From a virus: DNA of 64,000 nucleotides. Shown piece by piece: positions 1,328 to 46,695 of this stretch; position 1 is the first letter of the stretch, and the number at the start of each line of letters is the position of its first letter. A program made the position numbers and the translations under genes. The stretch is taken from the IMG/VR virus record IMGVR_UViG_3300027503_000009; one strand, given 5' to 3'. The notes beneath the pieces were generated by a model. It worked only from the letters and a program-made list of their open reading frames with translations, was not told the origin of the DNA and did not search any database.

Positions 1328-1426
1328 TGTCTGTTAGTTTAGTGTTATACAAATTATTGTATGACTAGGAAAAACACCTAATATTTTAGATTAGGAGTCA
1401 TTGGTCGAATCCTCTACAGACCGCCA
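1328..1426 (+). ncRNA. tRNA-like RNA or pseudo-tRNA with a hairpin inserted in the D loop
   Basis: GTCTGT/ACAGAC acceptor ending GCCA, inserted GTTATACAA/TTGTATGAC hairpin, weak T stem. Confidence 0.55.
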
Positions 1427-1524
1427 AATTCTTAGTGATAGACGTGCGATTGATACCGAACTCAAGGTATCTAGTCAAGATTCGGAACTATAGTGAAATC
1501 CACTGAGAAGCGCAAAATTTTAAT

Positions 1525-1603
1525 GGCTCTGTGTAGCTGGATTGGTATACAGCATATGCCTGAAGAGCATAAGATTCCGGTTCGAATCCGGACGGAGCCA
1601 CCA
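1525..1603 (+). tRNA. tRNA-Phe(GAA)
   Basis: TATGC-CT-GAA-GA-GCATA, T arm, CCA. Confidence 0.9.
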
Positions 1604-1610
1604 AAAATAT

Positions 1611-1680
1611 GGGTACGTTAGCTTCCGGAAGCAATTGGTAAACTCATGAGTTGGGAGTTCGATTCTCCTCGTATCCACCA
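1611..1680 (+). ncRNA. tRNA-like RNA with no anticodon loop and an Ala identity pair
   Basis: GGGTACG/CGTATCC-A-CCA (G3:U70), T arm GGGAG-TTCGATT-CTCCT, no anticodon loop. Confidence 0.65.
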
Positions 1681-1688
1681 AAATATTA

Positions 1689-1802
1689 TGTTTGAATGGT
1701 GATTGGCACAGTCTAGAAGCGCACTAGACAGACCTGCAAAGGTGTGGTTCGATTCCACTAACGGCATTGGAATGCTACTGGTTCGACTCCAGCATTCAAA
1801 CA
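1689..1802 (+). ncRNA. structured RNA with two T-loop arms
   Basis: 10-bp closing stem; GTGG-TTCGATT-CCAC and CTGG-TTCGACT-CCAG; three further hairpins. Confidence 0.65.
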
Positions 1803-1808
1803 ACAACT

Positions 1809-1871
1809 TCGAGAGATGATAATATCCAGATCGTCACTTCCGATCTGTCAGTTTAACTGATCTCTCGACCA
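1809..1871 (+). ncRNA. miniature CCA-ending cloverleaf RNA
   Basis: CGAGAGA/TCTCTCG-A-CCA, 7-bp CAGATCG/CGATCTG arm, tiny D-like and T-like arms. Confidence 0.55.
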
Positions 1872-1885
1872 AAGTTTAATAATGT

Positions 1886-1960
1886 GGGGTATTGGTGCAA
1901 TGGTTAGCATAGAAGTCCTTCAAACTTCTGACAAGGGTTCGACTCCCTTATACCCTACCA
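1886..1960 (+). tRNA. atypical tRNA, anticodon TTC with C33; identity uncertain
   Basis: Complete cloverleaf; anticodon loop CCTTCAA. Confidence 0.75.
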
Positions 1961-2004
1961 AAAAGATTTGACAAAGCAAAAGATTTAAGGTATAATGGTT
2001 CTAT

Positions 2005-2166
2005 ATGATTGACTTGAACAAATTGGATAAACTCTATAGGAATTCGAAAGAAGATCCTGGTCCTTTCATTACTGCGATGTTTAAGCATTATGAAGAGATT
2101 TCAGAAGATTTGAGGTTGCTGAAAGCGATGCAATTAGAGCTAACAAAATTAAGACAAACTTTATGA
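2005..2166 (+). CDS. small hypothetical protein (53 aa, not in the ORF track)
   Basis: TTGACA-17-TATAAT upstream; reads MIDLNKLDKLYRNSKEDPGPFITAMF. Confidence 0.6.
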   Translation: MIDLNKLDKLYRNSKEDPGPFITAMFKHYEEISEDLRLLKAMQLELTKLRQTL

Positions 2167-2254
2167 TAGAATTCTTGAATCGAATGTGGGCATTAATTCC
2201 GATAATTGGAATTATTTTGTTTCCTTTCTGGTTCAAATTTCGAAAATAAGTTTT

Positions 2255-2343
2255 GGGTTGGTTGTCGAGATTGGCTTCGGCGCCAGGCTGTAACCCTGGT
2301 TCCCCTAGGGGAGTTGTAGGTTCGAATCCTACCCAACCCACCA
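2255..2343 (+). tRNA. tRNA-Tyr(GTA)
   Basis: CCAGG-CT-GTA-AC-CCTGG, long variable arm, CCA. Confidence 0.92.
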
Positions 2344-2430
2344 TATTAAGAAGGTAATGTATGTTCATGCGTTTGGTAAGACGAATTCAGGAACAAACCA
2401 ACAAATCAGATCGTATACAGGATAAATATT

Positions 2431-2628
2431 ATGGGAAAACTGAGACCACCATCACATGCATCAAATTTGCAAGATGCTCTAACAGATCTTGTAAAAACGG
2501 GAGCAACTAGAGATCAAATTCATGCTTTGGTTCTTGCAGTTCGACCAATTTATGGTAGTTGCGGTCCGACTTGGCCTCAATATGAATCTATGTTAAATCG
2601 CCTTTTTCCAGAAACAAAACAGGAATAA
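2431..2628 (+). CDS. hypothetical protein
   Basis: ORF with AGGA RBS. Confidence 0.6.
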   Translation: MGKLRPPSHASNLQDALTDLVKTGATRDQIHALVLAVRPIYGSCGPTWPQYESMLNRLFPETKQE

Positions 2629-2630
2629 TT

Positions 2631-2981
2631 ATGGACGAATACTTACAAACTAATTACCAAACAGTTCCAATTGTCGAATATGTCATTGCAAATTATGACG
2701 ACTTACCAAAGTCTTCATTCGATAATGAAGAGTGTGTAATTGTAAAGCAATTAGAAAATGATGATTTCGGTTATGGTCATCATTGCTATGAAGGAATTGG
2801 AGTTAATTCTGAAGGAAAGATTTTGTGGTGCTATTCGTCGGGTTGTTCTCGTAGCGGATCTTGTGGAATGGACCACACAACCACTGAAAAGGTCTTTGAA
2901 GTTGACAGTTTTGATCTTTCACAAATCAATCCAGAAGAAGTAAATTTTGAAAAACTGAGTGTTTCGTTTAGTTCGTACTAA
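2631..2981 (+). CDS. hypothetical acidic phage protein
   Basis: ORF with RBS; SSGCS motif. Confidence 0.7.
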   Translation: MDEYLQTNYQTVPIVEYVIANYDDLPKSSFDNEECVIVKQLENDDFGYGHHCYEGIGVNSEGKILWCYSSGCSRSGSCGMDHTTTEKVFEVDSFDLSQINPEEVNFEKLSVSFSSY

Positions 2982-3099
2982 ATTGTTGCTTGTAAATTGA
3001 GTAGGTCGATCACAGATAAAATTGAGTACCATCAGGATGCTGTACGAAAGTCCTGTTAGCGAATAGTGAATTGGGGGCTCAATACCTTACAATTTTTGA

Positions 3100-3181
3100 T
3101 GCGGAGTAGAGCAGTGGTCAGCTCGCATGGCTCATAACCATGAGGTCGTCTCAAACGGTTCGAATCCTACCTCCGCAACCA
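3100..3181 (+). tRNA. tRNA-Met(CAT), initiator-like, with an insertion in the T stem
   Basis: TGCGGAG/CTCCGCA acceptor, GAGC D stem, CT-CAT-AA loop, CCA. Confidence 0.8.
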
Positions 3182-3270
3182 AATTAAGCAGTGGGTCCGC
3201 CATCTACAAGCAGATGCAAATGTGCGGATGAAACAAATAGCTTGAAATTCACACTGCTTAATACAGATTA

Positions 3271-3356
3271 GGAAGATAGTTTAACAGGAAAAACCAGAGT
3301 ACTGATTGGGTACTAGTTCAAAGCTAACTGATCCGGGTTCGAGGTCCGGTCTTCCA
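3271..3356 (+). ncRNA. tRNA-like RNA with a branched anticodon domain
   Basis: GGAAGA/TCTTCC acceptor, GTTT/AAAC D arm, CCGGG-TTCGAGG-TCCGG T arm. Confidence 0.6.
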
Positions 3357-3572
3357 GAAAGATTGAATATGCCAAAACGAAGAAAACCAAGAACAACTGG
3401 TTCCGATCTAGACTTTGACGGAAGTCATATATTTGGTTGGCCAGCAAAAGAATTTACAATTGCTTGGCATAAATTATATACAAGATTGAGAAATGGTTTG
3501 TGTTTGGGTTGTGGTATGAAGATTTGCAAATGCAAATCTAAAAGTCCAAATACAAAATTTGGTGGTGTTTAA

Positions 3573-3785
3573 ATGAAACGTGTTTGCCCTAATTGCAATT
3601 CTTCAAATTTCATCGATGTCCCAGCGCTTGAGCAATGTCCTGATTGTGGTTTAGAATGTTGCTATCGTGGTGGCGGTCCTAATGATGTTTACGAACGAAT
3701 GATGCGTCGTGAAGAACGAAAACGTGAACTTGAAGAAGAAAAACGTGAGTTTGAAGATTGGGGAAGAAACAACGGTTTCTGGTAG
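3573..3785 (+). CDS. small zinc-ribbon protein
   Basis: CPNC and CPDC motifs. Confidence 0.7.
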   Translation: MKRVCPNCNSSNFIDVPALEQCPDCGLECCYRGGGPNDVYERMMRREERKRELEEEKREFEDWGRNNGFW

Positions 3786-3798
3786 TATAAATAGTTAT

Positions 3799-3872
3799 GC
3801 CTCTCTGGTGTAGTGGTAACATATCGGTCTCCAAAACCGCAGACGTCAGTTCGATTCTGACGGGAGGTGCCA
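3799..3872 (+). tRNA. tRNA-Trp(CCA)
   Basis: CT-CCA-AA loop, CCA end; late promoter TATAAATA at 3786. Confidence 0.9.
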
Positions 3873-3882
3873 AAAGATTAAT

Positions 3883-3959
3883 ATTCCCGTAGTTTAATTG
3901 TTTAAAACAGCAGTCTCCAAAACTGCAAGATCTCGGTTAGAATCCGAGCGGGAGTGCCA
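3883..3959 (+). tRNA. second tRNA-Trp(CCA)
   Basis: GCAGT-CT-CCA-AA-ACTGC, CCA end. Confidence 0.85.
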
Positions 3960-3966
3960 AAAATTT

Positions 3967-4059
3967 GCTCCTATGGTGTAATGGTAAGCACGGCAGCCTT
4001 ATAAGCTGTTCACTCCAGATTAGAGTACGGTCCAGGTTCGAATCCTGGTGGGAGCACCA
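3967..4059 (+). tRNA. tRNA-Ile(TAT) with a long variable arm
   Basis: GCAGC-CT-TAT-AA-GCTGT, ACTC/GAGT variable-arm stem, CCA. Confidence 0.85.
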
Positions 4060-4067
4060 AAGTTTTT

Positions 4068-4144
4068 GTGTCGTAAGTGTTATTGGTTTCGCACGGGAGT
4101 TTGTGACACTCTCAGGGTTGGTTCAATTCCAACACGACACCCCA
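4068..4144 (+). tRNA. tRNA-His(GTG)
   Basis: TT-GTG-AC loop, C73, CCA. Confidence 0.88.
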
Positions 4145-4155
4145 AAAAATAATAT

Positions 4156-4230
4156 GCGAGTGTGGTGTTAATGGTAGCACACTGGTCTTCCAAACCATTG
4201 GTATCGGTTCGAATCCGATCATTCGCTCCA
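4156..4230 (+). tRNA. tRNA-Gly(TCC)
   Basis: CT-TCC-AA loop, U73, CCA. Confidence 0.92.
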
Positions 4231-4238
4231 AAATTTTA

Positions 4239-4326
4239 GGAGAATGCTGAGGTTGGCTCCTCGCACGGTCTTGAAAACCGTAGTATCTCTAACGGGATAA
4301 TAGTTCGATGCTATCATTCTCCTCCA
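4239..4326 (+). tRNA. tRNA-Ser(TGA) with an 8/4 fold
   Basis: 8-bp GGAGAATG/CATTCTCC acceptor, 4-bp T stem, variable arm. Confidence 0.82.
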
Positions 4327-4329
4327 TAA

Positions 4330-4524
<195 letters not shown>

Positions 4525-4526
4525 AA

Positions 4527-4616
4527 GGAAAATTGGCAGAGTGGTATTGCACCTGATTGCTAATCAGTGGTCATCCTGAAAGGGATGCACAAGTTCGAAT
4601 CTTGTATTTTCCGCCA
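4527..4616 (+). tRNA. tRNA-Ser(GCT)
   Basis: TT-GCT-AA loop, long variable arm, GCCA end. Confidence 0.9.
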
Positions 4617-4662
4617 AATTTAGTTGACAAAAGTTGTTTATAGTGGTACAATAAAAATGTGA

Positions 4663-4740
4663 TGGCGTGTAGCTCAGTTGGTTTAGAGCGCAGACCTGAT
4701 AAGTCTGAGGTCACTGGTTCGATTCCAGTCACGCCAACCA
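4663..4740 (+). tRNA. tRNA-Ile(GAT)
   Basis: CT-GAT-AA loop, CCA; TTGACA-17-TACAAT upstream. Confidence 0.93.
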
Positions 4741-4760
4741 AAAAATAAAAAGGATAAATT

Positions 4761-5816
4761 ATGAGTTTTTTCATTAAGAATGGTAACAATTTCAGGGTCA
4801 CGCCTAATAATAACTTAGATATTAGTAATAATCTTCCACCTGGAAATTATACCGTTAAGTTTGATAATATGAATAAAGAATATTCTCTAGAACAGATTGA
4901 TTCTTTTTCATTACCCAAAAAGTTATATGGTGATGTTGAAAAAACCACAAGTAGAATTTTAACCACCTTTAATCAAAGACCAAATTCTACAGGTGTTATG
5001 CTTTCTGGTGAAAAAGGTTCAGGTAAAACACTACTAGCAAAGTCAATTTCAGTTAAAGCTGCTGAACTTGGTATTCCTACAATCATCATCAATCAACCTT
5101 GGTTTGGTGATGGTTTCAATGCTTTTATTCAGACCATTCAACAACCTGCTATTATCTTTTTTGATGAATTTGAAAAAGTTTATGCAGAAAAGGAACACCA
5201 AGAAGCAGTTCTAACACTTTTTGACGGTGTTTATCCTACTAAAAAGCTTTTCATTTGTACATGTAATGATAAGTTCAGAGTTGACACAAACATGAGAAAT
5301 CGTCCAGGTAGAATCTACTACATGATTGATTTTACTGGTCTTGATATTAATTTTATTCGTGAATATTGTGAAGAAAATTTAATCAATAAAGACAATATTA
5401 ATTCTGTTTGTAATATTTCTTCAATCTTTCATCAATTTAATTTTGATATGCTAAAAGCTATGATTGAAGAAATGAATCGTTATAATGAAACTGCACCTGA
5501 AGTAATTAAGGTAATCAATACAAAACCTGAATTTAGTTCAGCAGTTACTTATGATATTGAATTTATTCCAAATAATCCAATTCATTTTGGTTCAGATGGA
5601 TATACAAAAACATTTACAGGTAATCCTATTGTTAAAGATGTTTATATTGGATATGAGACTGATGATGGTGAATATGTTGATACACAATATTTTTACCCTA
5701 GTGACATTATTTCAATTGATCCTTCAGGTAAAGTAACCTATTTGGATAGTGATAATAATAAGTTAATTCTTACAAAGAAGATTGAAAAGAAACCTATGGA
5801 ATTCTTTGCCTTCTAA
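4761..5816 (+). CDS. AAA+ ATPase
   Basis: Walker A GEKGSGKT, Walker B IFFDEFEK, NRPGRI. Confidence 0.9.
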   Translation: MSFFIKNGNNFRVTPNNNLDISNNLPPGNYTVKFDNMNKEYSLEQIDSFSLPKKLYGDVEKTTSRILTTFNQRPNSTGVMLSGEKGSGKTLLAKSISVKAAELGIPTIIINQPWFGDGFNAFIQTIQQPAIIFFDEFEKVYAEKEHQEAVLTLFDGVYPTKKLFICTCNDKFRVDTNMRNRPGRIYYMIDFTGLDINFIREYCEENLINKDNINSVCNISSIFHQFNFDMLKAMIEEMNRYNETAPEVIKVINTKPEFSSAVTYDIEFIPNNPIHFGSDGYTKTFTGNPIVKDVYIGYETDDGEYVDTQYFYPSDIISIDPSGKVTYLDSDNNKLILTKKIEKKPMEFFAF

Positions 5817-5827
5817 ATAGTTTAAAC

Positions 5828-5901
5828 ACCCGCTTAGTGTAACGGCAGCACAAATGACTTTGACTCATTTAGTCTAGGTTCGAATCCTGGAGCGGGTGCC
5901 A
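5828..5901 (+). tRNA. tRNA-Gln(TTG)
   Basis: AATGA-CT-TTG-AC-TCATT, CCA. Confidence 0.92.
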
Positions 5902-5939
5902 AACTTGACAACAATTAAAAATTTTGGTATAATTAAATT

Positions 5940-6863
5940 ATGAAAGCATATATTACAATTGGTCTTCCTGCTTCTGGGAAAACGACCTGGGCCAAAGAGT
6001 TTTGTAAAACGAATAACGTTGTTCGTGTGAACAACGACGACATTCGTGAACTTATTTATGAGAAGGAAGGCCATCGGAATTGGACTGGCGAAGTCGAGAA
6101 ACAGGTCCGGTGGATTCGCAAAGCAAAGATTGTAGAAGCAGCAGGACACAATATGAGTGTTGTGGTGGATAACACTCACCTGAATCCAAAGACGCTTCAG
6201 CAGATCAAAGACTTTTGTGTTGATGTTGGATTCGAAGTTGAGTTGGTAGATTTCCGTCATGTGCCTCTTGAAGAGTGCATCCGCCGTGATTCTTTGCGTG
6301 AAGCGAAAGTTGGAGAAAAGGTAATTCGTGATATGTATGATAAATTTATGAAAACTCCGATTGATCGTGATCTCCCAAAATGGGAACCTAATCGACTATA
6401 TAATTGTATTATTGTTGATATTGATGGTACTCTTGCTCAAATGAAAGATCGTGGACCTTATGATGAACATAAAGTATATCAAGACGATGTTCGAAATCAT
6501 GTCTTAATGACTGTTAAGGCATTGAAGATGATCAATCCGAATTTTAAAATATTTATTTTTACTGGACGTTCTGAAAAGTGTTCAACTGAAACTGTTAAAT
6601 GGCTAGAAGATAAATGTGGCTTTTATGTTCTGAATCATCATGATGAATATGATGATTTTCGATTAAATGTTGAACTTCATATGAGACAAGAAAATGATCG
6701 TCGTAGAGATTCAGAAGTAAAAATGGATATGTACAATCAATTCATCAAGTATAAATATAATGTATTTGCTGTTTTTGATGATCGCCCACAAGTCATCAGA
6801 GAATGTTGGAAAGTATTAAATGTTCCAGTTTTTAATTGTGGATTAATAGATTTGGAGTTCTAA
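5940..6863 (+). CDS. pseT: polynucleotide 5'-kinase/3'-phosphatase
   Basis: GLPASGKT P-loop, DIDGT HAD motif, FDDRPQV. Confidence 0.92.
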   Translation: MKAYITIGLPASGKTTWAKEFCKTNNVVRVNNDDIRELIYEKEGHRNWTGEVEKQVRWIRKAKIVEAAGHNMSVVVDNTHLNPKTLQQIKDFCVDVGFEVELVDFRHVPLEECIRRDSLREAKVGEKVIRDMYDKFMKTPIDRDLPKWEPNRLYNCIIVDIDGTLAQMKDRGPYDEHKVYQDDVRNHVLMTVKALKMINPNFKIFIFTGRSEKCSTETVKWLEDKCGFYVLNHHDEYDDFRLNVELHMRQENDRRRDSEVKMDMYNQFIKYKYNVFAVFDDRPQVIRECWKVLNVPVFNCGLIDLEF

Positions 6864-7032
6864 TGTCACCACCTGTATTTTTTACTGCACTAGCTGTTAT
6901 TCTTTGTTATCTTTGTTATAAATTAGGAGTAGCTTTAGAGAGAGAAAAATGGATTTACCATCTACACTTTCTTGAACGTGGTGTTGCGAAATGTTACAGA
7001 AATGGTAAAGTAGATCTTCTTTAAGAGGAAAT

Positions 7033-7215
7033 ATGTACGAGAATTTAATTGGAAAAAATGTTGATGAAGTTAGAGATTTTTTAAAAGAAAATCAAATTCC
7101 TTCAAGAGTTGTAAATATTGATGGTGTCCCATTCATGTTGACAAATGATTATAATCCAGCCAGATTAAATCTTTCTGTTGAAAATGGTTTGGTTACTGAA
7201 GTAATTATAGGTTAA
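7033..7215 (+). CDS. small serine-protease-inhibitor-like protein (potato inhibitor I / I78 fold)
   Basis: Pattern LIGK...LTNDYNPARLNLSVENGLV...G. Confidence 0.65.
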   Translation: MYENLIGKNVDEVRDFLKENQIPSRVVNIDGVPFMLTNDYNPARLNLSVENGLVTEVIIG

Positions 7216-7216
7216 T

Positions 7217-7750
7217 ATGAAACGTTGGGTGATTTCTGATACACATTTTGGTCATGAGAATATTATTAAATATTGTAATAGACCATTTCAAACAAAAGAA
7301 CAAATGGATGAAGTTCTAATAAATAATTGGAACAAATGTGTATCAGAAAATGATATTGTTTATTTTCTTGGTGATTTTTGTTTTGGTCGTCCAGGACATC
7401 AAGTTTCAAAAAATTATCGTGAGAAATTAAATGGAAAAATACATTTGATTCGTGGTAATCATGATAAATATATTGACGAATCTTTGTTTGAAACATCACA
7501 AAATGATCTAGTATTAAATATCATGGATAAACAAATTTATCTTTGTCACTATCCAGAAGAAGATAATAGATTTAATAAGCCATACTATGATTTTTATCTG
7601 TATGGTCATATTCATGATAAAATAAAATTTCACCCAAGAAAATTCAATATGTGTGTTGAAAATTGTGATTATACACCAATTGATTTAGATTTTTTTGTTG
7701 ATTTTATTTCTAGACATTATGGAGACAATTATGAACCAAAAGAAAGTTAA
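7217..7750 (+). CDS. calcineurin-like metallophosphoesterase
   Basis: SDTHFGH, LGD, GNHD and GHIH motifs. Confidence 0.92.
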   Translation: MKRWVISDTHFGHENIIKYCNRPFQTKEQMDEVLINNWNKCVSENDIVYFLGDFCFGRPGHQVSKNYREKLNGKIHLIRGNHDKYIDESLFETSQNDLVLNIMDKQIYLCHYPEEDNRFNKPYYDFYLYGHIHDKIKFHPRKFNMCVENCDYTPIDLDFFVDFISRHYGDNYEPKES

Positions 7751-7992
7751 GGTTATTCCTGAACAAATTATTCCTTCACGAATGATTGGTTCATGTTATC
7801 AATGTGATTTTTATTTCACAGATTCTTTAGGCGATTCTAGATTCTGTAAAAAAGTTAATAAAGAAGTAGATTTGCGAATTGGTGAAAAATTTCCAAAATG
7901 GTGTCCACTAGAAGAAAAAGAAATTGATGAAAATATTTTCCTCTAGCACTTGACAAACCATAAAATTTTTGATATTATAAATATATAAACAT

Positions 7993-8071
7993 AGGGAAAT
8001 AGAGGAGCCTGGTTTATCTCGTCTGTTTTGGGAACAGAAGCACGTCGGTTCGAATCCGACTTTCCCTACCA
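7993..8071 (+). tRNA. tRNA-Pro(TGG)
   Basis: TCTGT-TT-TGG-GA-ACAGA, CCA. Confidence 0.88.
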
Positions 8072-8077
8072 AATTTT

Positions 8078-8152
8078 TCTGGAATAGCTCAATGGTAGAG
8101 CGTCTGGCTGTTAACCAGAATGTTGTAGGTTCGAGTCCTACTTCCAGAGCCA
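8078..8152 (+). tRNA. tRNA-Asn(GTT)
   Basis: CT-GTT-AA loop, GCCA end. Confidence 0.93.
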
Positions 8153-8432
8153 AGATGCGGCTCATGGCAATAGTCACCCACGGTAAGGAGAGATTAGAAA
8201 CTCGCAGACTATAAAAATCCGCAAACAAGATTAGTGAGGATAAATTATGAAATATTTTTTATTTGCGTGTAGTTTTTTATTTTCTGGATATTTTGTTAAT
8301 GCAAATGTTCCAAAGTTTTGTACTCCGCATGGATGTTGTGTAGATAAATGTCCGTGTGTGAAGAAATGTTTATGTGATTGTGCATGTAAACGAAAGAAGC
8401 GATCATGATCGCTATTAAGGTATAATGAATAT

Positions 8433-8717
8433 ATGAAATTCTTTAGCTTTCTACAAAATAATTCTTTCGGTATTGATAAGCCTCCACCAAAAGTTGTTAT
8501 TGTTGAGGCGGAAAATGCCGAAGATGCGAACAAGCGTATTTTAGAAGTAGATGGCGTTTATTTCGGTGGTAATAATCGCTGGTCCCGTCAGTTGTCTTAT
8601 GAAGTTGGTGATGAAGTCCCGTCTCTTTGGGGTGATCCTCTTGAATTTGCTGAAGATGGAAACGTTTTAGTGGTTTATGCAAACGGTGAAAAAAAGTTTG
8701 GTGTTTTTCACTGGTAG
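8433..8717 (+). CDS. hypothetical protein, paralog of 45169..45492
   Basis: Shares QNNS, VEAENAEDAN, EVDGVYF and VLVVYANGEKK...FHW. Confidence 0.8.
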   Translation: MKFFSFLQNNSFGIDKPPPKVVIVEAENAEDANKRILEVDGVYFGGNNRWSRQLSYEVGDEVPSLWGDPLEFAEDGNVLVVYANGEKKFGVFHW

Positions 8718-8763
8718 TATTGACTTCTCAATTCCTTTCGAGGTATAATGGTTGTATGGTAAA

Positions 8764-8839
8764 GCTATGATAGCTCAATTGGTAGAGCAACGGTTTTGTA
8801 AACCGTAGGTTGTCAGTTCAAGTCTGACTCGTAGCTCCA
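8764..8839 (+). tRNA. tRNA-Thr(TGT)
   Basis: ACGGT-TT-TGT-AA-ACCGT, CCA. Confidence 0.93.
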
Positions 8840-8840
8840 A

Positions 8841-9044
8841 AGATTGTGGTTGATGGACGTATAGTGATGTTAGGTTAATGGTAGACCGCCGGAACGGTTA
8901 GCTAACCTTTGTAAATCCGGAGGCCCTGGTTCGACCCCAGGACATTGTTATACAGGAGTCTAAAAAGTATGCATGAGATTGGCTACCACGAATAGACAGA
9001 ATTAGAAATTTCTAGATAACTTCTAAGGATGTTTATAACAATCT
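8841..9044 (+). ncRNA. structured RNA containing an internal tRNA-like domain (8859-8953)
   Basis: 12-bp acceptor-like stem, D arm, CCGGA/TCCGG arm with inserted hairpin, CCTGG-TTCGACC-CCAGG T arm, no CCA. Confidence 0.6.
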
Positions 9045-9136
9045 CAAATATAAATTTTAAGGTTGCTCGTTACCTTATGGTAACGATGAGGCTTCTGGTC
9101 CCGTGAGCCATCTCAATCACGGGACATTAAACAGTT

Positions 9137-9556: not shown

Positions 9557-9807
9557 TAAATGAAAAGAAAAGAATTGAAGATGGCGAAGAAGTCACTTAT
9601 GTAGTGATTAACGAATCTTACGATGACGATTATGGTTCGTTGATTATGGATTATGTTCCATATAGAATTGATTCTAAAGGCAACAAAAAGAGACTTTCTC
9701 CAGAGAATTACGCATTAGGTCCATTTGAAGCGCAACAATATATTACATTCAAGAAGAACGTTCGTTGTGAACATTGTAATTCTGTAATTAAGACGGAGTA
9801 TTTATGA
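9553..9807 (+). CDS. hypothetical protein
   Basis: ORF overlapping both neighbours at ATGA. Confidence 0.65.
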   Translation: MINEKKRIEDGEEVTYVVINESYDDDYGSLIMDYVPYRIDSKGNKKRLSPENYALGPFEAQQYITFKKNVRCEHCNSVIKTEYL

Positions 9808-10190
9808 AACTTTGGTTAGATGATGTTAGAAAGTGTCCTTTTATTGGAAACTGGAAAACTGCTAAAAATTTTGATGAAGCAGTAAACATTATGCAAGAAA
9901 ATGAAATTGAAGAAGCATGGTTAGATCATGATCTTGCATATGAGCATTATGGACATGTAAAGCCAGAAGATTATGTAGAAAAAACTGGTTATGATTTTGT
10001 TCTTTGGATGAAAGAGAATAATCGTTGGCCTACAAAATTGTGTATAGTTCATTCCTTAAATCCTGTTGGTTCTGAACGAATGTGTGAAGTTATCGCAGAA
10101 CATTATGGAACTCAAAATCCAAAACGTCATTATATTTCTTATTTAAATATTGACAAATATTTTCAGGGTTTTAAATATGCCAATCTATGA
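9804..10190 (+). CDS. cyclic-phosphate-processing receiver-like domain protein
   Basis: LWLDDVR, LDHDL, TGYD and HSLNPVG motifs. Confidence 0.75.
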   Translation: MKLWLDDVRKCPFIGNWKTAKNFDEAVNIMQENEIEEAWLDHDLAYEHYGHVKPEDYVEKTGYDFVLWMKENNRWPTKLCIVHSLNPVGSERMCEVIAEHYGTQNPKRHYISYLNIDKYFQGFKYANL

Positions 10191-27161: not shown

Positions 27162-29267
27162 ATGGGTAATATAGTTTTAAGAAAAAATAGAGTCACAGCG
27201 AACACTTTAATTGGTAAAGTTGGTGAACTAACAATTAACACAACTGATAAAACTCTCTATATTCATGATGGTTCAACTACTGGTGGATTTTGTTTATTTA
27301 GATACAACACATCTAGTGCAATAACATCAGGGGAGGTGCCGTTTTCAAACGGCACCCAAGGTGTTTTACAGACTAGTTCTAATTTAAAATGGACAAGTCC
27401 AAACTTATTAATTAACACCTATAAAGCATTTCATTCTGGTAATTTAGTTGCTGGAACTGCAATTTCAATTACAGAATCACCAACAAATACATTTACTGTA
27501 GCAAATACTGGTGTAACAAGTATTACTGCTGGTACTGGTATTTCAATTACAGGGTCTACTGGTTCAATAACTATTAGTGCTACTGGGGGTGGTGCAACTG
27601 GAATTTCCGGTGTAACATCATTAGAAGGTTTAACTGGAGCATTAACATTCGTTGATGGAAATATTACTTTTGGAACTAGTGGTTCAACACAAATTACTGC
27701 TACAATTTCTTCCACACCAGCAAGCACATTAACTGGAACAATTCCATCTGGTGTTTTGGGTAATTCTACAGTTAATATTGGATCTACTGCTGTTGCATTA
27801 AATCGAGCATCTGCTAATTTGGCATTAACTGGTATTTCTAGTGTACAATTTCCAGGTTCAACATCAGGCACAATAACATTACAAGCAACAGCAATTGCTG
27901 GAACTACAACAATTACATTACCAGCTACATCTGGAACATTAGTATTATCTGGTTCAATTGTTAATGCTGATATAGCAACTGGTGCCGCAATTGCTTATTC
28001 TAAATTATCACTTTCAGGAACAATTGTAAATAATGATATAGCAACTGGTGCCGCAATTGCTTATTCTAAATTATCATTATCAAATTCAATTGTAAATAAT
28101 GATATAGCAACTGGTGCCGCAATTGCTTATTCTAAATTATCATTATCAAATTCAATTGTAAATGCAGACATCGCAACTACTGCCGCAATTGCTTATTCTA
28201 AATTATCATTATCAAATTCAATTGTAAATGCTGATATTAGTACAACAGCAGCAATTGCAATTACTAAATTAGCAGCATCTACAATTTCTGGTGTTTCTCT
28301 TGGAAATAATTTAAATACATTAACATTTGGCTCATACTTAACAGGAACTTCTTATAATGGATCTGCTGCAAGAACAATTGCTGTTGATGCAACAACAGCA
28401 GCTACAGCAAGCAAAGTTGTAGCAAGAGATGCAAGTGGAACAGTTTTTGCTACAACATTTTCAGGTTCAGGTGCTTCACTAACAAATATTCCAAATGGCG
28501 CATTAACTAATTCATCAATTACGGTAAATGGAACTGTAATTTCATTAGGTGGTTCTGGAACAGTTACCGCAAATACAACAAATTCAATAACATTTGATAA
28601 TTTAGGAACTGGTGCTGTTTCTGGTTCAACTTTTAATGGATCTGCTGCACAAACAATTAGTTATAATACAATTGGCGCACCATCAACAACAGGTACAAAT
28701 GCTTCAGGTTCATGGGGAATTTCTGTAACTGGTTCATCTGCATCATGCACAGGAAATGCAGCAACAGCAACTGTCTTACAAACAAGTAGAACATTTTCAT
28801 TAACTGGTGATGTTACTGCATCTGCTGTTTCATTTAACGGATCAGGTGACGTTCAATTATCAACAACAATTGGAAACGGTACAGTTACTTCAGCTAAATT
28901 AGCATCATCTTTATCATTAACTACACCGACATTAAGTTCACCAACTATTTCTGGAGTTATTTCTTCTGGTCCACAAGGAAATAAAACAATAATTGTAGAT
29001 TATGTTCCTACAAGTGTTAGTGCTTCAGTTTCAGTTGGATATGGTTATACAGTTAATGCAAATTCAATAACATTAACTTTACCAAATACCAGTTTATCTG
29101 ATGGTGATAGAATTTCGTTTATTCCAGGAAGCAATTTAATTAACAGTTATACAATTTCCGGAAACGGAAATGCTATTATGAATACAGATACATCACTGAC
29201 AATAGATTTAGCTGTTCCTTTTGATTTAATTTGGAATGGAACAAATACAAGATGGGTCTTAGGATAA
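27162..29267 (+). CDS. tail fibre protein
   Basis: G/S/T-rich; Mtd-like N terminus; 20-aa tandem repeats. Confidence 0.8.
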   Translation: MGNIVLRKNRVTANTLIGKVGELTINTTDKTLYIHDGSTTGGFCLFRYNTSSAITSGEVPFSNGTQGVLQTSSNLKWTSPNLLINTYKAFHSGNLVAGTAISITESPTNTFTVANTGVTSITAGTGISITGSTGSITISATGGGATGISGVTSLEGLTGALTFVDGNITFGTSGSTQITATISSTPASTLTGTIPSGVLGNSTVNIGSTAVALNRASANLALTGISSVQFPGSTSGTITLQATAIAGTTTITLPATSGTLVLSGSIVNADIATGAAIAYSKLSLSGTIVNNDIATGAAIAYSKLSLSNSIVNNDIATGAAIAYSKLSLSNSIVNADIATTAAIAYSKLSLSNSIVNADISTTAAIAITKLAASTISGVSLGNNLNTLTFGSYLTGTSYNGSAARTIAVDATTAATASKVVARDASGTVFATTFSGSGASLTNIPNGALTNSSITVNGTVISLGGSGTVTANTTNSITFDNLGTGAVSGSTFNGSAAQTISYNTIGAPSTTGTNASGSWGISVTGSSASCTGNAATATVLQTSRTFSLTGDVTASAVSFNGSGDVQLSTTIGNGTVTSAKLASSLSLTTPTLSSPTISGVISSGPQGNKTIIVDYVPTSVSASVSVGYGYTVNANSITLTLPNTSLSDGDRISFIPGSNLINSYTISGNGNAIMNTDTSLTIDLAVPFDLIWNGTNTRWVLG
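27953..28270 (+). repeat. 60-nt coding tandem repeat, about 5 units
   Basis: Units of SIVN(A/N)DIATGAAIAYSKLSLS. Confidence 0.85.
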
Positions 29268-41871: not shown

Positions 41872-42492
41872 TTAGATCCCGTGGATTCGTTTCCACGTCA
41901 CCCAAGTAATAGCTTGAACCTGAGATGCGGACAAACCAACAATTCCCGCTACCATCCGGTATGCGGAAATAATCGCAGAACGTTCCCGTTCTGCGATATG
42001 CGGCATTGTCGCTACAGTGTAGCGATAGCCTACCGCAACGCTATAGGCATGAACGTCTACGGTAACCTTATCGTCACCGTTCTTATCACCGTTGCGGAGG
42101 TTATCAGCAAAAGCCGTAACCTTGGGACCGCTCAAAATATGGCGAAACGGTTCGTTCCGTTTGTCTGCTAACAGGATAGCAGCTGCCTTGTCGATGTTGC
42201 GACGATAGCCCGCAACACCGGACACTAACGATAACGGCTTATCGTTAGCGATAGCGTCGGCCAAAATATCAATTCCATTCAAATTTGAAGTCCAACGGAT
42301 ACCCGGCGATAATGCGGCAGTTGCATCAACTACCGCATCGAACGAAAAGTTAGAAACACGGGCAATAACCCGTAATTGTTCGTGGGCGGCGGTGTACCAT
42401 GCACCCCCGGAGCGTTTTTCTTCCGGCGTCGCCATATTGTAGACGGCGAGGATGTTGGTCATGAAATCGTTGGTCATACGAAAAATGGTCAT
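41872..42492 (-). CDS. conserved phage early protein
   Basis: GAWY, AALSP..RW, GPKV..F and VTVDVHA motifs. Confidence 0.8.
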   Translation of the reverse strand: MTIFRMTNDFMTNILAVYNMATPEEKRSGGAWYTAAHEQLRVIARVSNFSFDAVVDATAALSPGIRWTSNLNGIDILADAIANDKPLSLVSGVAGYRRNIDKAAAILLADKRNEPFRHILSGPKVTAFADNLRNGDKNGDDKVTVDVHAYSVAVGYRYTVATMPHIAERERSAIISAYRMVAGIVGLSASQVQAITWVTWKRIHGI

Positions 42493-42692
42493 TTTTTCCT
42501 TTTCTGTTTGGCGCTGGCCTCAACTCTTATAGATTACCATAGGCCAGAACTAAACTGCAATACCCTACCACGAAAAAACTACATAAATTCCATAAATACC
42601 CCCCATAAGGAAAACGAATGATAGCGCATCCAAAATCATATTGATAACGTTGTTTTTCATACTGTTATTCTCTCATGAAAAAATGGGGATTG

Positions 42693-42908
42693 TCAATCCC
42701 CATTTTCATTATTTTCCATATCTTCAATGACTTCAATCATCTCACGGTACAACGGGCAATAGTTCCAGTGACCAACATGATGTCCCAACATCAAATCGAA
42801 ATGCTCATATTTTTCACCGTTCCACTCCCAACGGGAATGGATTAAATTATATTCATTCCCGTTGTGATAGACCGTCATGATTTTTTCTTCAATGTAATTT
42901 TGTTCCAT
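42693..42908 (-). CDS. early hypothetical protein (leaderless)
   Basis: TTGACA-17-TACCAT-6-ATG; TGA stop lies inside the next TTGACA. Confidence 0.75.
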   Translation of the reverse strand: MEQNYIEEKIMTVYHNGNEYNLIHSRWEWNGEKYEHFDLMLGHHVGHWNYCPLYREMIEVIEDMENNENGD

Positions 42909-42960
42909 GAGTCAATGGTATCAAGGTCAGAAAAAAATGTCAAGAAAAAAACAAAAAAAA

Positions 42961-43135
42961 TTTTGGTACTATCGGTCCTGGTGCCAGTACTAGTACCTCG
43001 CCAGGTCTGGTACTATTGGTCCTGGTGGTACTATCGGAAGGGGATGGGCGTACTAGTACTAGTGACCAGTTAGTACTAATGCGCCCATCCGCAGTACTAG
43101 TACCGTTGACCAGACGGTACTAGTGGTACTGGTAG
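42961..43135. repeat. non-coding GTAC-rich repeat cluster
   Basis: 12 GTAC tetramers in about 165 nt, including GTACTAGTAC units. Confidence 0.85.
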
Positions 43136-43151
43136 GCAAAGGAACTACCAG

Positions 43152-43346
43152 TTAATCTTCCCAAACAAACTTCGCAGAATTTAACTTAACTTGCCCCCAT
43201 TGGTCAACTTGCCAACTCATTCCGGCCCAATCAAACAACCAATGTTCCCACAAGTTAGACCAACGCATGTTTGCGAGAATAATCTTCGCATCATATGATC
43301 TGAACTTCTCTTGAATTGAGGCGACAATCTCAGGCGTGGGTGTCAT
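43152..43346 (-). CDS. early Trp-rich hypothetical protein
   Basis: Own promoter directly upstream of the ATG. Confidence 0.7.
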   Translation of the reverse strand: MTPTPEIVASIQEKFRSYDAKIILANMRWSNLWEHWLFDWAGMSWQVDQWGQVKLNSAKFVWED

Positions 43347-43401
43347 ATGTTCCTATCTTAGCACGATGTGTTCAGGTTGTCAACCTGATGTGTTCAAATT
43401 T

Positions 43402-43505
43402 CCTTTTAATTAAGTCCTTTTCCGGCATTATGCGTAGGTCATCAATACTTTTGGAGGGGTACAAACGACCCTTACGCATTGACGGAAAAGGACTTAATTA
43501 AAAGG
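43402..43505. repeat. long inverted repeat
   Basis: 23-bp perfect arms CCTTTTAATTAAGTCCTTTTCCG. Confidence 0.85.
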
Positions 43506-43510
43506 TGGGG

Positions 43511-43774
43511 CTACTGCCCCACCTTCTTGCTGATGTGACGGGCGATAATCTTGCCCGTCACCTGATTGCGAACACGCTTCTTATTGCCATTCTCAGCAAC
43601 AATCTGGTTGTAGAGGTACATAACAGCCCCAAGATTGGAGTCCACCAGATTGATCGTGGTGTACTTGGACTTGTCCACACCAACTTGAATCTGGTAGCCA
43701 GTGTTGGGGGTGTTCTGAATCGCACCCTTCTCATTCTGGAAGGAAGCGGTCTGGAAGTTGAAGGTCATCTGCAT
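43511..43774 (-). CDS. early hypothetical protein
   Basis: Promoter, conserved GAGTCAGGGCAAG leader and RBS. Confidence 0.75.
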   Translation of the reverse strand: MQMTFNFQTASFQNEKGAIQNTPNTGYQIQVGVDKSKYTTINLVDSNLGAVMYLYNQIVAENGNKKRVRNQVTGKIIARHISKKVGQ

Positions 43775-43876
43775 TTTCGTTTTTTCCTTTTCTATCAGGC
43801 TTGCCCTGACTCTTTTAGTATCTCACAGGTTCGGTTGCTTGTCAACAGTTTTCAGAACTTTTTTTCTTGGGGGAGG

Positions 43877-44158
43877 TTATTCCTCCCCCATCCCCTCATC
43901 GCCACCATCCTCATTTTCTACATCACCCACAAACTCAACTCCCGGCCAGTAGAAAACATATCCATAACCCATGTTATCCCATTTCACATTGGTTGGGACG
44001 TAAACGTTTCTACGTCCCATTTCATACATCACATCCAAAATCTCAGCCATTGTGTCAACCACAATGGCAAGGCAAGATTTGCCACCCATATAACGGCCAG
44101 AATAGCCCCTGCACTCAAAACCACAATCTTCGAGAAATTCCTGCAAATCGCTTTTCAT
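43877..44158 (-). CDS. early hypothetical protein
   Basis: YSGRYMGGKSCLA...WDNMG motif; leaderless promoter. Confidence 0.78.
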   Translation of the reverse strand: MKSDLQEFLEDCGFECRGYSGRYMGGKSCLAIVVDTMAEILDVMYEMGRRNVYVPTNVKWDNMGYGYVFYWPGVEFVGDVENEDGGDEGMGEE

Positions 44159-44196
44159 GATTTTATTCTCCCATACTGGAAGGGGTTTGTCAACCC

Positions 44197-44412
44197 CTAG
44201 AACAACTTTTTGTGAAATTTCACAACTTTGGAAATCGCAGACTGCAAAGTTTTGCAGGGAACTAAGGAAATCTTCTCTTCAGAAAACAACATCAGTTCTT
44301 TTTTCTTAGGGTTCCAATCAGCAACCAGTGTGCCATTCAGCAAAAACTCAGTGAAGCAGTAGATGCTGCCACGGTCAAAGGTGTTGATTTCAAGTTTCTG
44401 TTTTTCAACCAT
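44197..44412 (-). CDS. early hypothetical protein
   Basis: Leaderless promoter. Confidence 0.7.
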   Translation of the reverse strand: MVEKQKLEINTFDRGSIYCFTEFLLNGTLVADWNPKKKELMLFSEEKISLVPCKTLQSAISKVVKFHKKLF

Positions 44413-44559
44413 GATTTATATTACCACGACCCCTCAGAGAATGGCAACAGAAAAATGATGAAAACTAGAAGTTTTTTCTGTTGCCATTCTCTGAGGGGTG
44501 TCAGGGGTACCCCTGACACCCAAAACCCCAGGAAGGGCCGTTTCCGGCCCAGGAATCAC

Positions 44560-44778
44560 CTATTCCCCGTAGTAGTCGTAAGACTCATACTGCGATTCAT
44601 ACATCGAATCCAGGTGCTGGTCCTCCAGCTCAAAACTAGGATCTTCAGGATAGTCCTGGAAATCGTCAGAATCATAGATGTCGGCCATTTCAGCCTGAGC
44701 ATCTTCCCAGGCTTCATTCCGACCCATTTCTTCCAGGTCGTTTTCGTAGAACTCGTAGGTGTCGTAGTCTTCAAACAT
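44560..44778 (-). CDS. extremely acidic early protein (72 aa)
   Basis: AAGGAG RBS; 27 D/E, 1 R, no K. Confidence 0.8.
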   Translation of the reverse strand: MFEDYDTYEFYENDLEEMGRNEAWEDAQAEMADIYDSDDFQDYPEDPSFELEDQHLDSMYESQYESYDYYGE

Positions 44779-44893
44779 TCCGTTTTCTCCTTTTGTCTTG
44801 GCTCTTGCCCTGACTCTTTTAGTATCGCACGTTGTAGCAGGGAAGTCAACAACTTTTTTTGTTTTTTTGTGGGGGATTTTCGCCCCCCACACT

Positions 44894-45130
44894 TTACTTC
44901 ACCTGAACCGCAACCTGTTTGATTTCAGCAACATAGACATCGCCCACATCAAACGTTCCATATGTCATTGGAGACTTCACCGCACAGTACCAGCGAGCGA
45001 AGGGGTTTTGCTTTTCCTTTTCCGGAGTCTGATAGGTCTTGAGAACACGCCATTCCCAGGAACCATCAAAACTCTTGAAAATCATATGAGGATTGTCAAT
45101 CTTGGCAGTTTTGCCGAATGGATTCTTCAT
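44894..45130 (-). CDS. early hypothetical protein
   Basis: WEWRVLKTYQ...ARWYCAVKSP; leaderless promoter. Confidence 0.78.
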   Translation of the reverse strand: MKNPFGKTAKIDNPHMIFKSFDGSWEWRVLKTYQTPEKEKQNPFARWYCAVKSPMTYGTFDVGDVYVAEIKQVAVQVK

Positions 45131-45168
45131 ATTGTTAGTATCTCACATTCTGGGGGGTTTGTCAACAG

Positions 45169-45492
45169 TTACCAGTGAAAAAGTCCCCTCTTTTTTTCAC
45201 CGTTTGCGTAAACCACTAAAACATCACCATCACCATCACCATCACCAAAAACAACAGGATCACCATAAGTAGACGGGACATCATCGCCAACTTCACCAGA
45301 CCATTTGCTGGACCAGCGATCACCGCAACAAGGGCAGTCAACGCCAGAATCACAACCATCGAAGTAAACACCCTCTACTTCTAAAACACGATTGTTCGCA
45401 TCTTCGGCGTTTTCAGCCTCAACAACAACGTGTTTTGCTGGTCCGGTGAAATGACCACCTGAATTATTTTGAGAAAAATGGAAGAATTTCAT
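45169..45492 (-). CDS. early hypothetical protein (QNNSGG...DCPCCGDRW family)
   Basis: Recognisable motifs; leaderless promoter. Confidence 0.8.
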   Translation of the reverse strand: MKFFHFSQNNSGGHFTGPAKHVVVEAENAEDANNRVLEVEGVYFDGCDSGVDCPCCGDRWSSKWSGEVGDDVPSTYGDPVVFGDGDGDGDVLVVYANGEKKRGLFHW

Positions 45493-45549
45493 ACTTTTAG
45501 TTTCTCACATTCTGGGGGGTTTGTCAACCCCCCACTTGAAGTTTTTTTG

Positions 45550-45813
45550 CTATTCAGCGATTCGGCGTTCAAACACCCCACGTTCCAGAGTGGCAGTGTC
45601 AGAACCATCAGTGTGGAACGTGATGGGGAAGTAGTCTTCACCAATCTGAGCATAAACTTCAGTTTCATTCATACCCAAGTCAATCCAGTCACCAACAGCA
45701 CCAGCGTAAGTCTCAGATTCTACAACATTTTCAGGATTGAAATTCCCAGGAAGGTCACCAACCAGGAAACGCTTGATAGGGAGGGTCGAAAACTTAACTT
45801 TCTTCAGAAACAT
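45550..45813 (-). CDS. early hypothetical protein
   Basis: Conserved leader and RBS. Confidence 0.72.
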   Translation of the reverse strand: MFLKKVKFSTLPIKRFLVGDLPGNFNPENVVESETYAGAVGDWIDLGMNETEVYAQIGEDYFPITFHTDGSDTATLERGVFERRIAE

Positions 45814-46307
45814 GGTCTTTTCTCCTTTTGTCCTGGCTCTTGCCCTGACTCTTTTACTTTACCACAACCTTTTTCCGGTTGTCAACAGAATTTTTCAAGT
45901 TTTTGTGAAAGTCACAAACGTTCCGTTTGCAGTTGGGGCAGTTCAGAATCGAAAGCATCAGGTGTTGTTTGCTCATGTTTTTACTTTACCACAGAAGTTT
46001 TGGGGATGTCAAGAGTTTTTTTCAACTCTTTCGAAAAATCCAGCACAGTCGGAAATGCAATAGAAAACAAAGAAACAACCAGGACAATCAACAGAATGTC
46101 AAACATCGAATCACTGATAAGCCGTTTCATGAATCCATCATCTCACAGTCTGGGGAATTTGTCAACTACTTAATTGCACAATCTGCTTTCATGGCGAAAA
46201 AAATAATAATCACACCGAAAAGATAACCCGCCATGAAAAACGTAAGATATTTGAGTCGAAGTTCTTTTCTTGTCATGAATCCATCATCTCACAGTCTGAG
46301 GGGTTTG

Positions 46308-46660: not shown

Positions 46661-46695
46661 ACTGTTATTATCCCATGTGTTCTTCACAATGTCAA

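Follow-up and report, generated by a model that had tools for sequence, protein, structure and literature searches.

Conserved and lineage-specific tRNA-derived genes that probably do not decode in the tRNA array of a T4-like freshwater phage

The tRNA array of an uncultured, T4-like phage from a lake or freshwater source was analysed in a 64,000-nucleotide stretch of DNA (IMG/VR record IMGVR_UViG_3300027503_000009; the whole stretch is called the window below). Besides its tRNA genes, this operon cluster probably holds tRNA-derived genes that do not decode, some of which are conserved (elements E3, E5 and an RNA that contains E6) and some of which are lineage-specific (E1, E2 and E4). A reading of the sequence alone had placed six tRNA mimics with a removed or rebuilt anticodon domain between the normal tRNAs of this region, and all six are present. 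The elements are as follows (nt, nucleotides; bp, base pairs):

1328-1426, + strand: E1, a decayed tRNA-Asp-like paralogue with an acceptor stem at 1329-1334/1416-1421, G73 and CCA at 1424-1426
1611-1680, + strand: E2, a 70-nt anticodon-less tRNA-like gene with a 7-bp acceptor stem and a canonical T arm at 1653-1669
1689-1802, + strand: E3, a 114-nt conserved RNA without CCA, with a 10-bp closing stem around six hairpins
1809-1871, + strand: E4, a 63-nt miniature cloverleaf-like set of hairpins with a 9-bp stem and CCA
3270-3357, + strand: E5, a tRNA-shaped RNA with a long variable arm and without CCA, acceptor stem at 3271-3276/3350-3355
8863-8950, + strand: E6, a tRNA-shaped domain without CCA, on a 12-bp stem at 8859-8870/8942-8953
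8840-9050, + strand: a conserved RNA, about 210 nt long and including E6, seen in alignments with the related records L041 and G002

ARAGORN and Rfam did not agree on a normal tRNA for any of the six elements. With default settings, E5 was the only one called by ARAGORN (3269-3358, 'tRNA-Asn(att)'), and with the Rfam tRNA model RF00005 (gathering threshold 29 bits) only E6 passed (8864-8949, 42.1 bits); E1-E5 had no Rfam tRNA match at E <= 10. It had been proposed to find out in this way which elements are unclassified, and this applied to the four at 1328, 1611, 1689 and 1809, for which the sole weak match was to tRNA-Sec (23 bits, 1690-1801). A loop of the decoding type, i.e., 7 nt with U33 and a suitable purine at position 37, was not found in E2-E6.

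In the array as a whole, ARAGORN lists 20 tRNA genes between 49 and 8839, all of them on the + strand and with E5 among them as Asn(att). At its standard threshold Rfam supported 18 of these 20, and E6 was the 20th of its standard matches in this stretch. The tRNA-Ala at 1241 was supported in the permissive Rfam search, which also added a tRNA-Ser(UGA) at 4238. An encoded CCA end is present in all 20 canonical tRNAs of the array. It is also present in E1, E2 and E4, where it is followed by an A-rich linker as after every canonical tRNA here, and these three elements keep the CCA-and-linker format of the array units. E3, E5 and E6 have no encoded CCA; a host enzyme could add it. The tRNA-like spacing that had been noticed before was confirmed for E1-E4, which follow the preceding unit after 6-8 nt, compared with 6-11 nt between true tRNA neighbours in the array.

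Related arrays were recovered from viral and metagenome contigs by protein-anchored and pattern scans, and they fall into three groups. The first comprises L021, L034 and L037, the second L022, L023, L035 and L036, and the third L038, L039 and L043. L023 continues in record G002, and L041, on a contig of its own, has the same arrangement downstream. The arrays are strongly mosaic, i.e., blocks that are 97-99% identical adjoin blocks that are 72-85% identical, and the junctions lie at short shared motifs. E2-E4, for example, are missing between tRNA-Phe and tRNA-Glu in L022 and L023. At the corresponding place, tRNAs are few or absent in more distant relatives, and none of the 20 additional loci (L044-L063) of a wider protein-anchored scan had any. 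The GenBank phage set yielded tRNA-sized matches only and no close relative; the nearest record, G001, overlaps with the window only at its other end.

The E5 of the window was compared with its homologues in L021, L023, L034 and L036. The two versions differ at 12 positions and by one indel in the D loop, and nine of the substitutions are located in stems. Eight of these nine combine into four double compensatory changes, of which two affect the acceptor stem and one each the anticodon stem and the T stem; the ninth converts an A-U into a G-U pair, and all 24 pairs are kept. Outside of the stems, differences were seen only at loop position 33, in the D-loop indel and at the ends, and both lineages have the same 15-nt variable arm. 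Under random substitution the probability of no broken pair would be 0.007, and that of at least four double changes about 5e-6. At the anticodon position (3303-3309) the window has the loop TGATTGG, and the relatives have TAATTGG; this loop appears to be unfit for decoding because it has a purine at position 33 (G33 and A33, respectively) and a G37 beside U36. It was concluded from these comparisons that E5 is a tRNA-shaped RNA apparently under selection, which would not decode. Its anticodon domain had been described as branched, but an ordinary cloverleaf with a long variable arm (type II) fits equally well. The 3' neighbour of E5 is an open reading frame (ORF) in the window and tRNA-Trp in the relatives.

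The closing stem of E3 surrounds a D-like hairpin (1699-1709), an anticodon-like hairpin with the loop AAGCGCA (1711-1729), a GNRA hairpin (1732-1743), a first T arm (1744-1758), a small hairpin with a GG loop (1763-1776) and a second T arm (1778-1792). A model of the window copy detected one homologue, L038:2885-3007, with 64 bits and E = 1e-13; the same sequence is present in L039. All 36 modelled pairs are kept in this homologue, and no non-standard pair was flagged. At least six double compensatory changes were counted in a register that is more conservative than that of the model. The closing stem and the D-like stem have two each, the anticodon-like hairpin has one or more, and the small hairpin has one. 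Another hairpin lengthens from four to eight pairs, and the L038 copy folded alone has the same layout of six hairpins. Both T loops are conserved, as is the GG in each of two small loops, and together these loops could form two D-loop/T-loop 'elbows'. No description of two tRNA elbows within one closing stem on one molecule was found in any RNA. The L038 copy is likewise devoid of CCA. In L038, E3 stands alone after tRNA-Phe, without E2 or E4, and is followed by an ORF, whereas in the window it is followed by E4.

E6 consists of a D arm (8873-8887), an anticodon stem (8889-8893/8916-8920) and a T arm (8925-8941), and all three stems are canonical. The anticodon loop in the window has 22 nt and contains the palindrome GGTTAGCTAACC. 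ARAGORN calls E6 a tRNA-Tyr(gta) only with a 15-nt 'intron'. An intron-containing tRNA, with a group I intron or a bulge-helix-bulge intron of the archaeal/eukaryotic splicing type after position 37, was considered and rejected, as the 15-nt insert lies 5' of the putative anticodon and no Rfam intron family matched. At the same position, G002 and L041 carry a 72-nt unit without CCA, which ARAGORN calls tRNA-Cys(gca) and which has the 7-nt loop CGGCAAC with G33. The anticodon stem is thus invariant between the two versions, whereas the loop has 22 nt in one and 7 nt in the other. Over 26 pairs, two double changes were found, one in the D stem and one in the extended stem, together with four single-sided changes. 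The 100 nt on the 3' side of E6 (8951-9050) are 96% identical between the lineages, and both versions fold into a tRNA-like domain, carried by a long stem, plus a hairpin domain on the 3' side. Because the E6 domain sits on a 12-bp stem and is followed by the conserved 100 nt, it is probably a module of a larger RNA (about 8840-9050) and not a free tRNA gene.

The homologues of E3, E5 and E6 and their covariation indicate that these RNAs are under selection for a tRNA-like shape and did not arise by random decay. As the alignments and predicted folds show, all three seem to keep parts of the L shape, i.e., an acceptor-type closing stem, a D-type loop containing GG and a T arm, and the anticodon position can vary freely or has a loop that looks unfit for decoding. 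The earlier statement that most elements keep fully paired stems, unlike randomly decayed pseudogenes, needs a correction for E1, which is not fully paired. Homologues with covariation, whose absence had been named as a point that would speak against the elements, were obtained for the same three, but E1 behaves like a decaying copy, and E2 and E4 are without homologue in the collections searched. The six elements do not form a single class, as the group is heterogeneous and comprises three conserved RNAs, one decaying copy and two orphans.

E1 aligned best with tRNA-Asp, with which it shares the start of the D arm and the G73-CCA end. It has about 25 extra nt in its middle, the T stem has only 2-3 pairs, and the T loop has 6 nt. 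The folds agreed with the structures that had been described for E2, E3, E4 and E6, but the T arm of E1 is broken. In L021 E1 is 99% identical, in L034 and L037 only its first 47 nt are present, and it is absent from L022 and L023. We read E1 as a tRNA paralogue that appears to be decaying and dispensable.

E2 has G3:U70, A73 and CCA, i.e., the alanine identity set, and perfect 12-nt palindromes (1621-1632 and 1641-1652) replace its D and anticodon arms. Its origin as a specific derivative of tRNA-Ala was rejected. The E2 model scores other tRNAs equally, and thus only G3:U70 and A73 point to alanine; the next-best matches of this model (R3) were ordinary tRNAs only, with at most 33 bits. E4 has a 7-bp arm with the loop TCACTTC and a 5-bp arm with a 3-nt loop, and it contains no T-loop, D-loop or GG motifs. 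Compared with shuffled sequences, the fold of E4 is very stable (z = -4.0, with none of 200 shuffles as stable), followed by E3 (z = -2.7) and the borderline case E1 (z = -1.9). In shuffles of 1604-1885, a CCA preceded by a closing stem of 7 bp or more occurred in about 10%, and two such combinations in about 3%. Chance is nevertheless unlikely for E2, because it has a canonical T arm, and for E4, because it has nine perfect pairs. The first 9.4 kb contain 10 perfect 12-nt palindromes, compared with 3.7 +/- 2.0 in shuffles. Those at 1621 and 1641 fill the inner arms of E2, the one at 8896 lies in the inserted loop of E6, and another one is at 2301; such palindromes may hint at a signature at the DNA level.

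Several observations weigh against conserved, non-decoding tRNA-like genes as a general explanation. Each conserved family is represented by no more than two different sequences, and these come from lake phages that are close relatives; the covariation statistics are therefore weak. The folds of E2 (z = -0.5), E5 (z = 0.05) and E6 (z = -0.2) are no more stable than shuffled sequences, and the lowest values that the shuffle controls reach are 32/500 for E5 and 113/500 for E6. In the E6 relative, two pairs of the acceptor stem are broken. No protein partner is known for any of these RNAs, and binding via the shape is deduced from which parts are conserved and is not a result. Furthermore, no homologues of E2 and E4 were found by BLAST, covariance models or pattern scans. 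With the exception of E3, the sampled relatives do not share the block 1604-2676, and the lack of E2 and E4 homologues may therefore reflect a poorly sampled donor lineage. Pattern scans of viral contigs for E2, E4 and E5 gave nothing new, those of prokaryote genomes for E3 and E5 gave no match, and the E3 and E4 models found nothing further on the full records of the relatives.

Traces of remodelling are also seen in the tRNA genes next to E1:

633-668, + strand: 5' half of a tRNA-Ala(UGC), which ends just past the anticodon; the intact form is L021:9652-9725
706-1248, + strand: ORF of an HNH endonuclease cassette (PHROGs) that splits this tRNA-Ala
1241-1319, + strand: a second, different and complete tRNA-Ala downstream of the HNH cassette

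In T4, the GIY-YIG homing endonuclease SegB, encoded in the tRNA cluster, drives the preferential inheritance of that region (PMC2330249). SegB of T6 cuts within tRNA genes and amplifies tRNA segments (PMC13096335). By our reading, the published T6 SegB cut motif (PMC13096335) would be the reverse complement of the T-loop consensus. Cutting of the SegB type offers a known mechanism for the mosaicism of the arrays, for near-identical blocks beside diverged ones and for relics like E1.

The tRNAs, the small ORFs and the six elements are embedded in the following transcriptional and genic context:

502-530, + strand: predicted early promoter of the sigma-70 type, 11/12 consensus matches and a 17-nt spacer
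8720-8749, + strand: predicted promoter of the unit of tRNA-Thr and the E6 RNA, 11/12 consensus matches
5940-6863, + strand: polynucleotide kinase-phosphatase (PNKP; RNA repair) inside the array, from Pfam and PHROGs
7217-7750: phosphoesterase, from Pfam/PHROGs
9804-10190: cyclic-phosphate-processing receiver-domain gene (cREC, Pfam PF20274) just after the array, from Pfam/PHROGs

Seven near-consensus promoters of the sigma-70 type (11-12 of 12 matches) were predicted on the + strand, at 224, 502, 1968, 4624, 5905, 7950 and 8720, and the scan of the array revealed no convincing + strand terminator between units. It follows that the tRNAs, small ORFs and odd elements probably share a few transcription units of the early type. 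The unit of the promoter at 502 comprises tRNA-Asp, the HNH cassette, tRNA-Ala, E1, tRNA-Phe, E2, E3, E4 and tRNA-Glu, and no terminator-like site was found on the + strand between this promoter and the next one at 1968.

E3, E5, E6 and the other elements would accordingly be transcribed early, together with the tRNAs. Excision by host tRNA-processing enzymes is proposed because the acceptor and T-arm geometry is kept; RNase P would act on the 5' side, and RNase E/Z together with exonucleases on the 3' side. The elements may then persist as stable L-shaped RNAs, like the species 1 RNA of T4. The conserved ones might occupy a protein that recognises the tRNA shape and not the anticodon, and candidates are a host defence nuclease that targets tRNAs or a processing or modifying enzyme. 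A more far-reaching proposal, which we regard as possible but put forward with low confidence, is that E3, E5 and the E6 RNA found undescribed families of phage RNAs, which present the elbow and body of a tRNA, do not decode and bind competitively to host proteins that recognise this shape. The targets of such sponges or inhibitors would be, for example, tRNA-cleaving immune effectors, and E3 would present two elbows to them.

Other explanations have to be weighed against conserved, non-decoding genes. All six elements might be non-functional pseudogenes or repair scars, generated by homing endonucleases and by microhomology recombination between the tRNA genes of co-infecting phages, and tolerated owing to their shortness. 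This would fit to E1 as a degenerate tRNA-Asp-like copy half-deleted in L034 and L037, to the tRNA-Ala broken at its anticodon by the HNH cassette, to the orphans E2 and E4, to the perfect 12-nt palindromes of E2 and E6, which are odd for RNA hairpins, and to mosaic arrays with junctions at short shared motifs; in addition, SegB cuts tRNA genes at a T-loop motif (PMC13096335). However, E3, E5 and E6 have double compensations and few or no broken pairs while neighbouring genes differ by 15-30%, and E3 has kept six hairpins although one of them doubled in length, so that scars are rather unlikely as an explanation for all six. Some elements might also be working tRNAs with host-added CCA. E5 would then be a tRNA-Asn(AUU) or read codons in an unusual manner, and E6 would be a tRNA-Tyr(GUA) with an intron, the counterpart of which in the relative would be a tRNA-Cys(GCA). 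The ARAGORN calls for E5, for E6 with its 15-nt intron and for the relative's copy point in this direction, as do the score of E6 above the Rfam tRNA threshold and the fact that ARAGORN found no tRNA-Cys in the window. This is nevertheless highly improbable. The purine 33 and the G37 beside U36 of E5 and the G33 of the E6 relative are unfit for decoding, the apparent anticodon of E6 varies between homologues (GTA versus GCA), the insert 5' of this anticodon is far below the size of a group I intron, and the acceptor stem of the relative has two mismatches. Furthermore, E3, E5 and E6 are without an encoded CCA, compared with 20 of the 20 canonical tRNAs that have it.

The sequence-only reading had suggested that the elements and a mimic of the L11 site of 23S rRNA may act as coordinated decoys for anticodon nucleases, tRNA-modifying toxins, RelA, SmpB or synthetases. 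Indeed, the conserved elements keep the tRNA body and leave the anticodon position free, E2 combines the alanine identity set (G3:U70, A73 and CCA) with the lack of an anticodon, and host defences that cut tRNAs are widespread (PMC10264068, PMC12445682, PMC13096335). Circumstantial points are that PNKP, the phosphoesterase and cREC in or next to the array speak for a conflict about tRNA cleavage, and that the GTPase-centre mimic at 4325-4392 is real. On the other hand, nucleases that recognise their target by its anticodon loop are poorly decoyed by an RNA that lacks this loop, and the phage escapes documented in the cited papers use tRNAs that decode (PMC10264068, PMC11555353, PMC12445682, PMC13096335). 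No description of anticodon-less phage decoys was found in the literature. In addition, the elements are not inherited as a set, since relatives have E5 without E2-E4, or E3 without E2 and E4, and neither a partner protein nor a defence system was identified; we thus have little confidence in coordinated decoys. A last possibility is that the elements are modules that recruit RNase P, Z or E, by which the neighbouring tRNAs, small RNAs and mRNAs of small ORFs would be separated and shielded against exonucleases, without a function as free RNAs. It would agree with the tRNA-like spacing in polycistronic units that mix tRNAs and small ORFs, and with the positions of E6 directly 5' of the highly conserved 100-nt RNA and of E5 directly 5' of the window ORF. 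However, real tRNAs already punctuate these units, the partners vary (E5 precedes tRNA-Trp in relatives, and E3 precedes E4 here and an ORF in L038), and the conservation of the inner hairpins of E3 and of the variable arm of E5 exceeds what a cleavage signal needs. A role confined to processing is therefore quite doubtful.

The closest known analogues of the elements are the species 1 and 2 RNAs of T4, rnaC and rnaD. Both are stable RNAs of the T4 tRNA cluster with unknown roles (PMC3014915). In the T4 layout, rnaC, rnaD and segB all lie within the tRNA cluster, and the array described here is thus comparable in that small RNA genes other than tRNAs are found in a T4-type tRNA cluster with a homing endonuclease gene. 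Moreover, a canonical T arm and a closing stem are seen in the fold of rnaC. In contrast to rnaC and rnaD, which are located at the end of the cluster, the elements are interleaved among the tRNAs, and the two T arms of E3 and the full cloverleaf of E5 are a different architecture. A homology of E3 with rnaC or rnaD was rejected, because the E3 model (R1) reached at most 13.4 bits on the T4 region.

Like canonical tRNAs (RF00005), the elements have an acceptor-type stem, a D-type arm and a T arm, and E6 even exceeds the Rfam threshold; unlike them, the anticodon arm is missing or enlarged or has a non-decoding loop, and the CCA is lacking in E3, E5 and E6. Phage tRNAs that serve in the escape from defence either resist cleavage, as the tRNAs of T5 and mycobacteriophages and the tRNA-Thr directed against P2 OLD, or are extra copies, as the T6 tRNA-Tyr directed against Septu (PMC10264068, PMC11555353, PMC12445682, PMC13096335). 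They are likewise found in arrays that are exposed to host tRNA-nuclease conflict and remodelled by homing endonucleases, but they decode and replace or outnumber the cleaved host tRNAs, whereas the elements described here apparently cannot decode. E2 resembles the tRNA-like domain of tmRNA and alanine minihelices in its acceptor with G3:U70 and A73, its CCA, its T arm and the missing anticodon. In the minihelix work of Schimmel, the alanyl-tRNA synthetase AlaRS reportedly charged such anticodon-less substrates. Unlike tmRNA, E2 has no mRNA-like part. The tmRNA mode of ARAGORN found none in the window, and a two-piece tmRNA across 1541-1856 was rejected (Rfam tmRNA_permuted, 17.7 bits versus a threshold of 47). 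YrlA and other bacterial Y RNAs, which are bound by Ro60/Rsr, also have a non-decoding, tRNA-like module of T and D arms on a long stem, and some phages encode them. Nevertheless, none of the six elements, including E3, matched YrlA (RF02553); the only match in the window had 21.5 bits (8043-8101; threshold 69). Searches of 34 ORFs against Pfam or PHROGs gave no Ro60/TROVE domain.

Phage tRNA arrays are now viewed as weapons against host defences that cut tRNAs, and the stable non-tRNA RNAs of the T4 cluster have been without a known role for decades. In the window such RNAs appear to be diverse and tRNA-derived, and at least three seem to be held in a tRNA-like form by selection with an anticodon that is free or unusable. 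They are concrete candidates of about 90-210 nt for the use of the tRNA shape alone as a tool by a phage, and shuffling driven by endonucleases probably creates as well as destroys such genes.

The earlier count of at least six elements proved to be a lower limit, because the conserved 100 nt at 8951-9050 and two further stretches can be added:

1431-1524, + strand: conserved non-coding stretch of 94 nt before tRNA-Phe, 98-99% identical in eight related loci
3183-3262, + strand: structured spacer RNA of 80 nt between tRNA-Met and E5, fold z = -3.4

The conservation of 1431-1524 extends to the distant L038 and L039, in which the neighbouring tRNAs are about 80-92% identical, and the stretch has no clear fold (z = -1.6). 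The spacer RNA at 3183-3262 has three double compensatory changes compared with L021, and it is cleanly deleted in L034. Downstream of the E6 RNA, two strong hairpins (9062-9126) lie just 5' of an ORF at 9137 and are about 90% conserved in L041, which has an extra small ORF between its E6 RNA and the matching hairpins.

The tRNA-Ser(UGA) at 4238-4326 has a fold like that of selenocysteine tRNAs, with 9 bp (or 8 bp) in the acceptor stem, 4 bp in the T stem and a long variable arm. The Rfam tRNA-Sec model gave 49 bits, and ARAGORN needed a lowered threshold; copies in relatives, which are 92% identical, are called Ser(tga) by ARAGORN. We take its shape to resemble those of 'allo-tRNAs'. It is followed at 4325-4392 by the near-exact L11-binding helices of the 23S rRNA GTPase centre (Rfam LSU model positions 1084-1153, 31.6 bits) and by further conserved RNA up to 4524. 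The region 4236-4524 is 87-90% identical even in the distant L004-L008 and L043, compared with only about 72% for the DNA of the neighbouring ATPase gene. Another tRNA (3967-4059, Rfam 62.9 bits) has a long variable arm, A73 and the anticodon UAU for the isoleucine codon AUA, unlike the ordinary short-arm tRNA-Ile(UAU) of L002-L008.

Outside of the array, the window encodes a family B DNA polymerase, RecA-like and DnaB-like proteins, ribonucleotide reductase, ThyX and a TonB-dependent receptor. The G+C content, which is about 30-35% across most of the window, is 0.41-0.45 at 42000-52000, compared with about 0.30 elsewhere, and the sign of the GC skew flips. A tRNA-Lys and a tRNA-Arg are located on the minus strand at 49280-49440. 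A protein of 701 amino acids is encoded at 27162-29267; its N-terminal domain resembles the N-terminus of the major tropism determinant (Mtd_N), and it could be the target of a diversity-generating retroelement.

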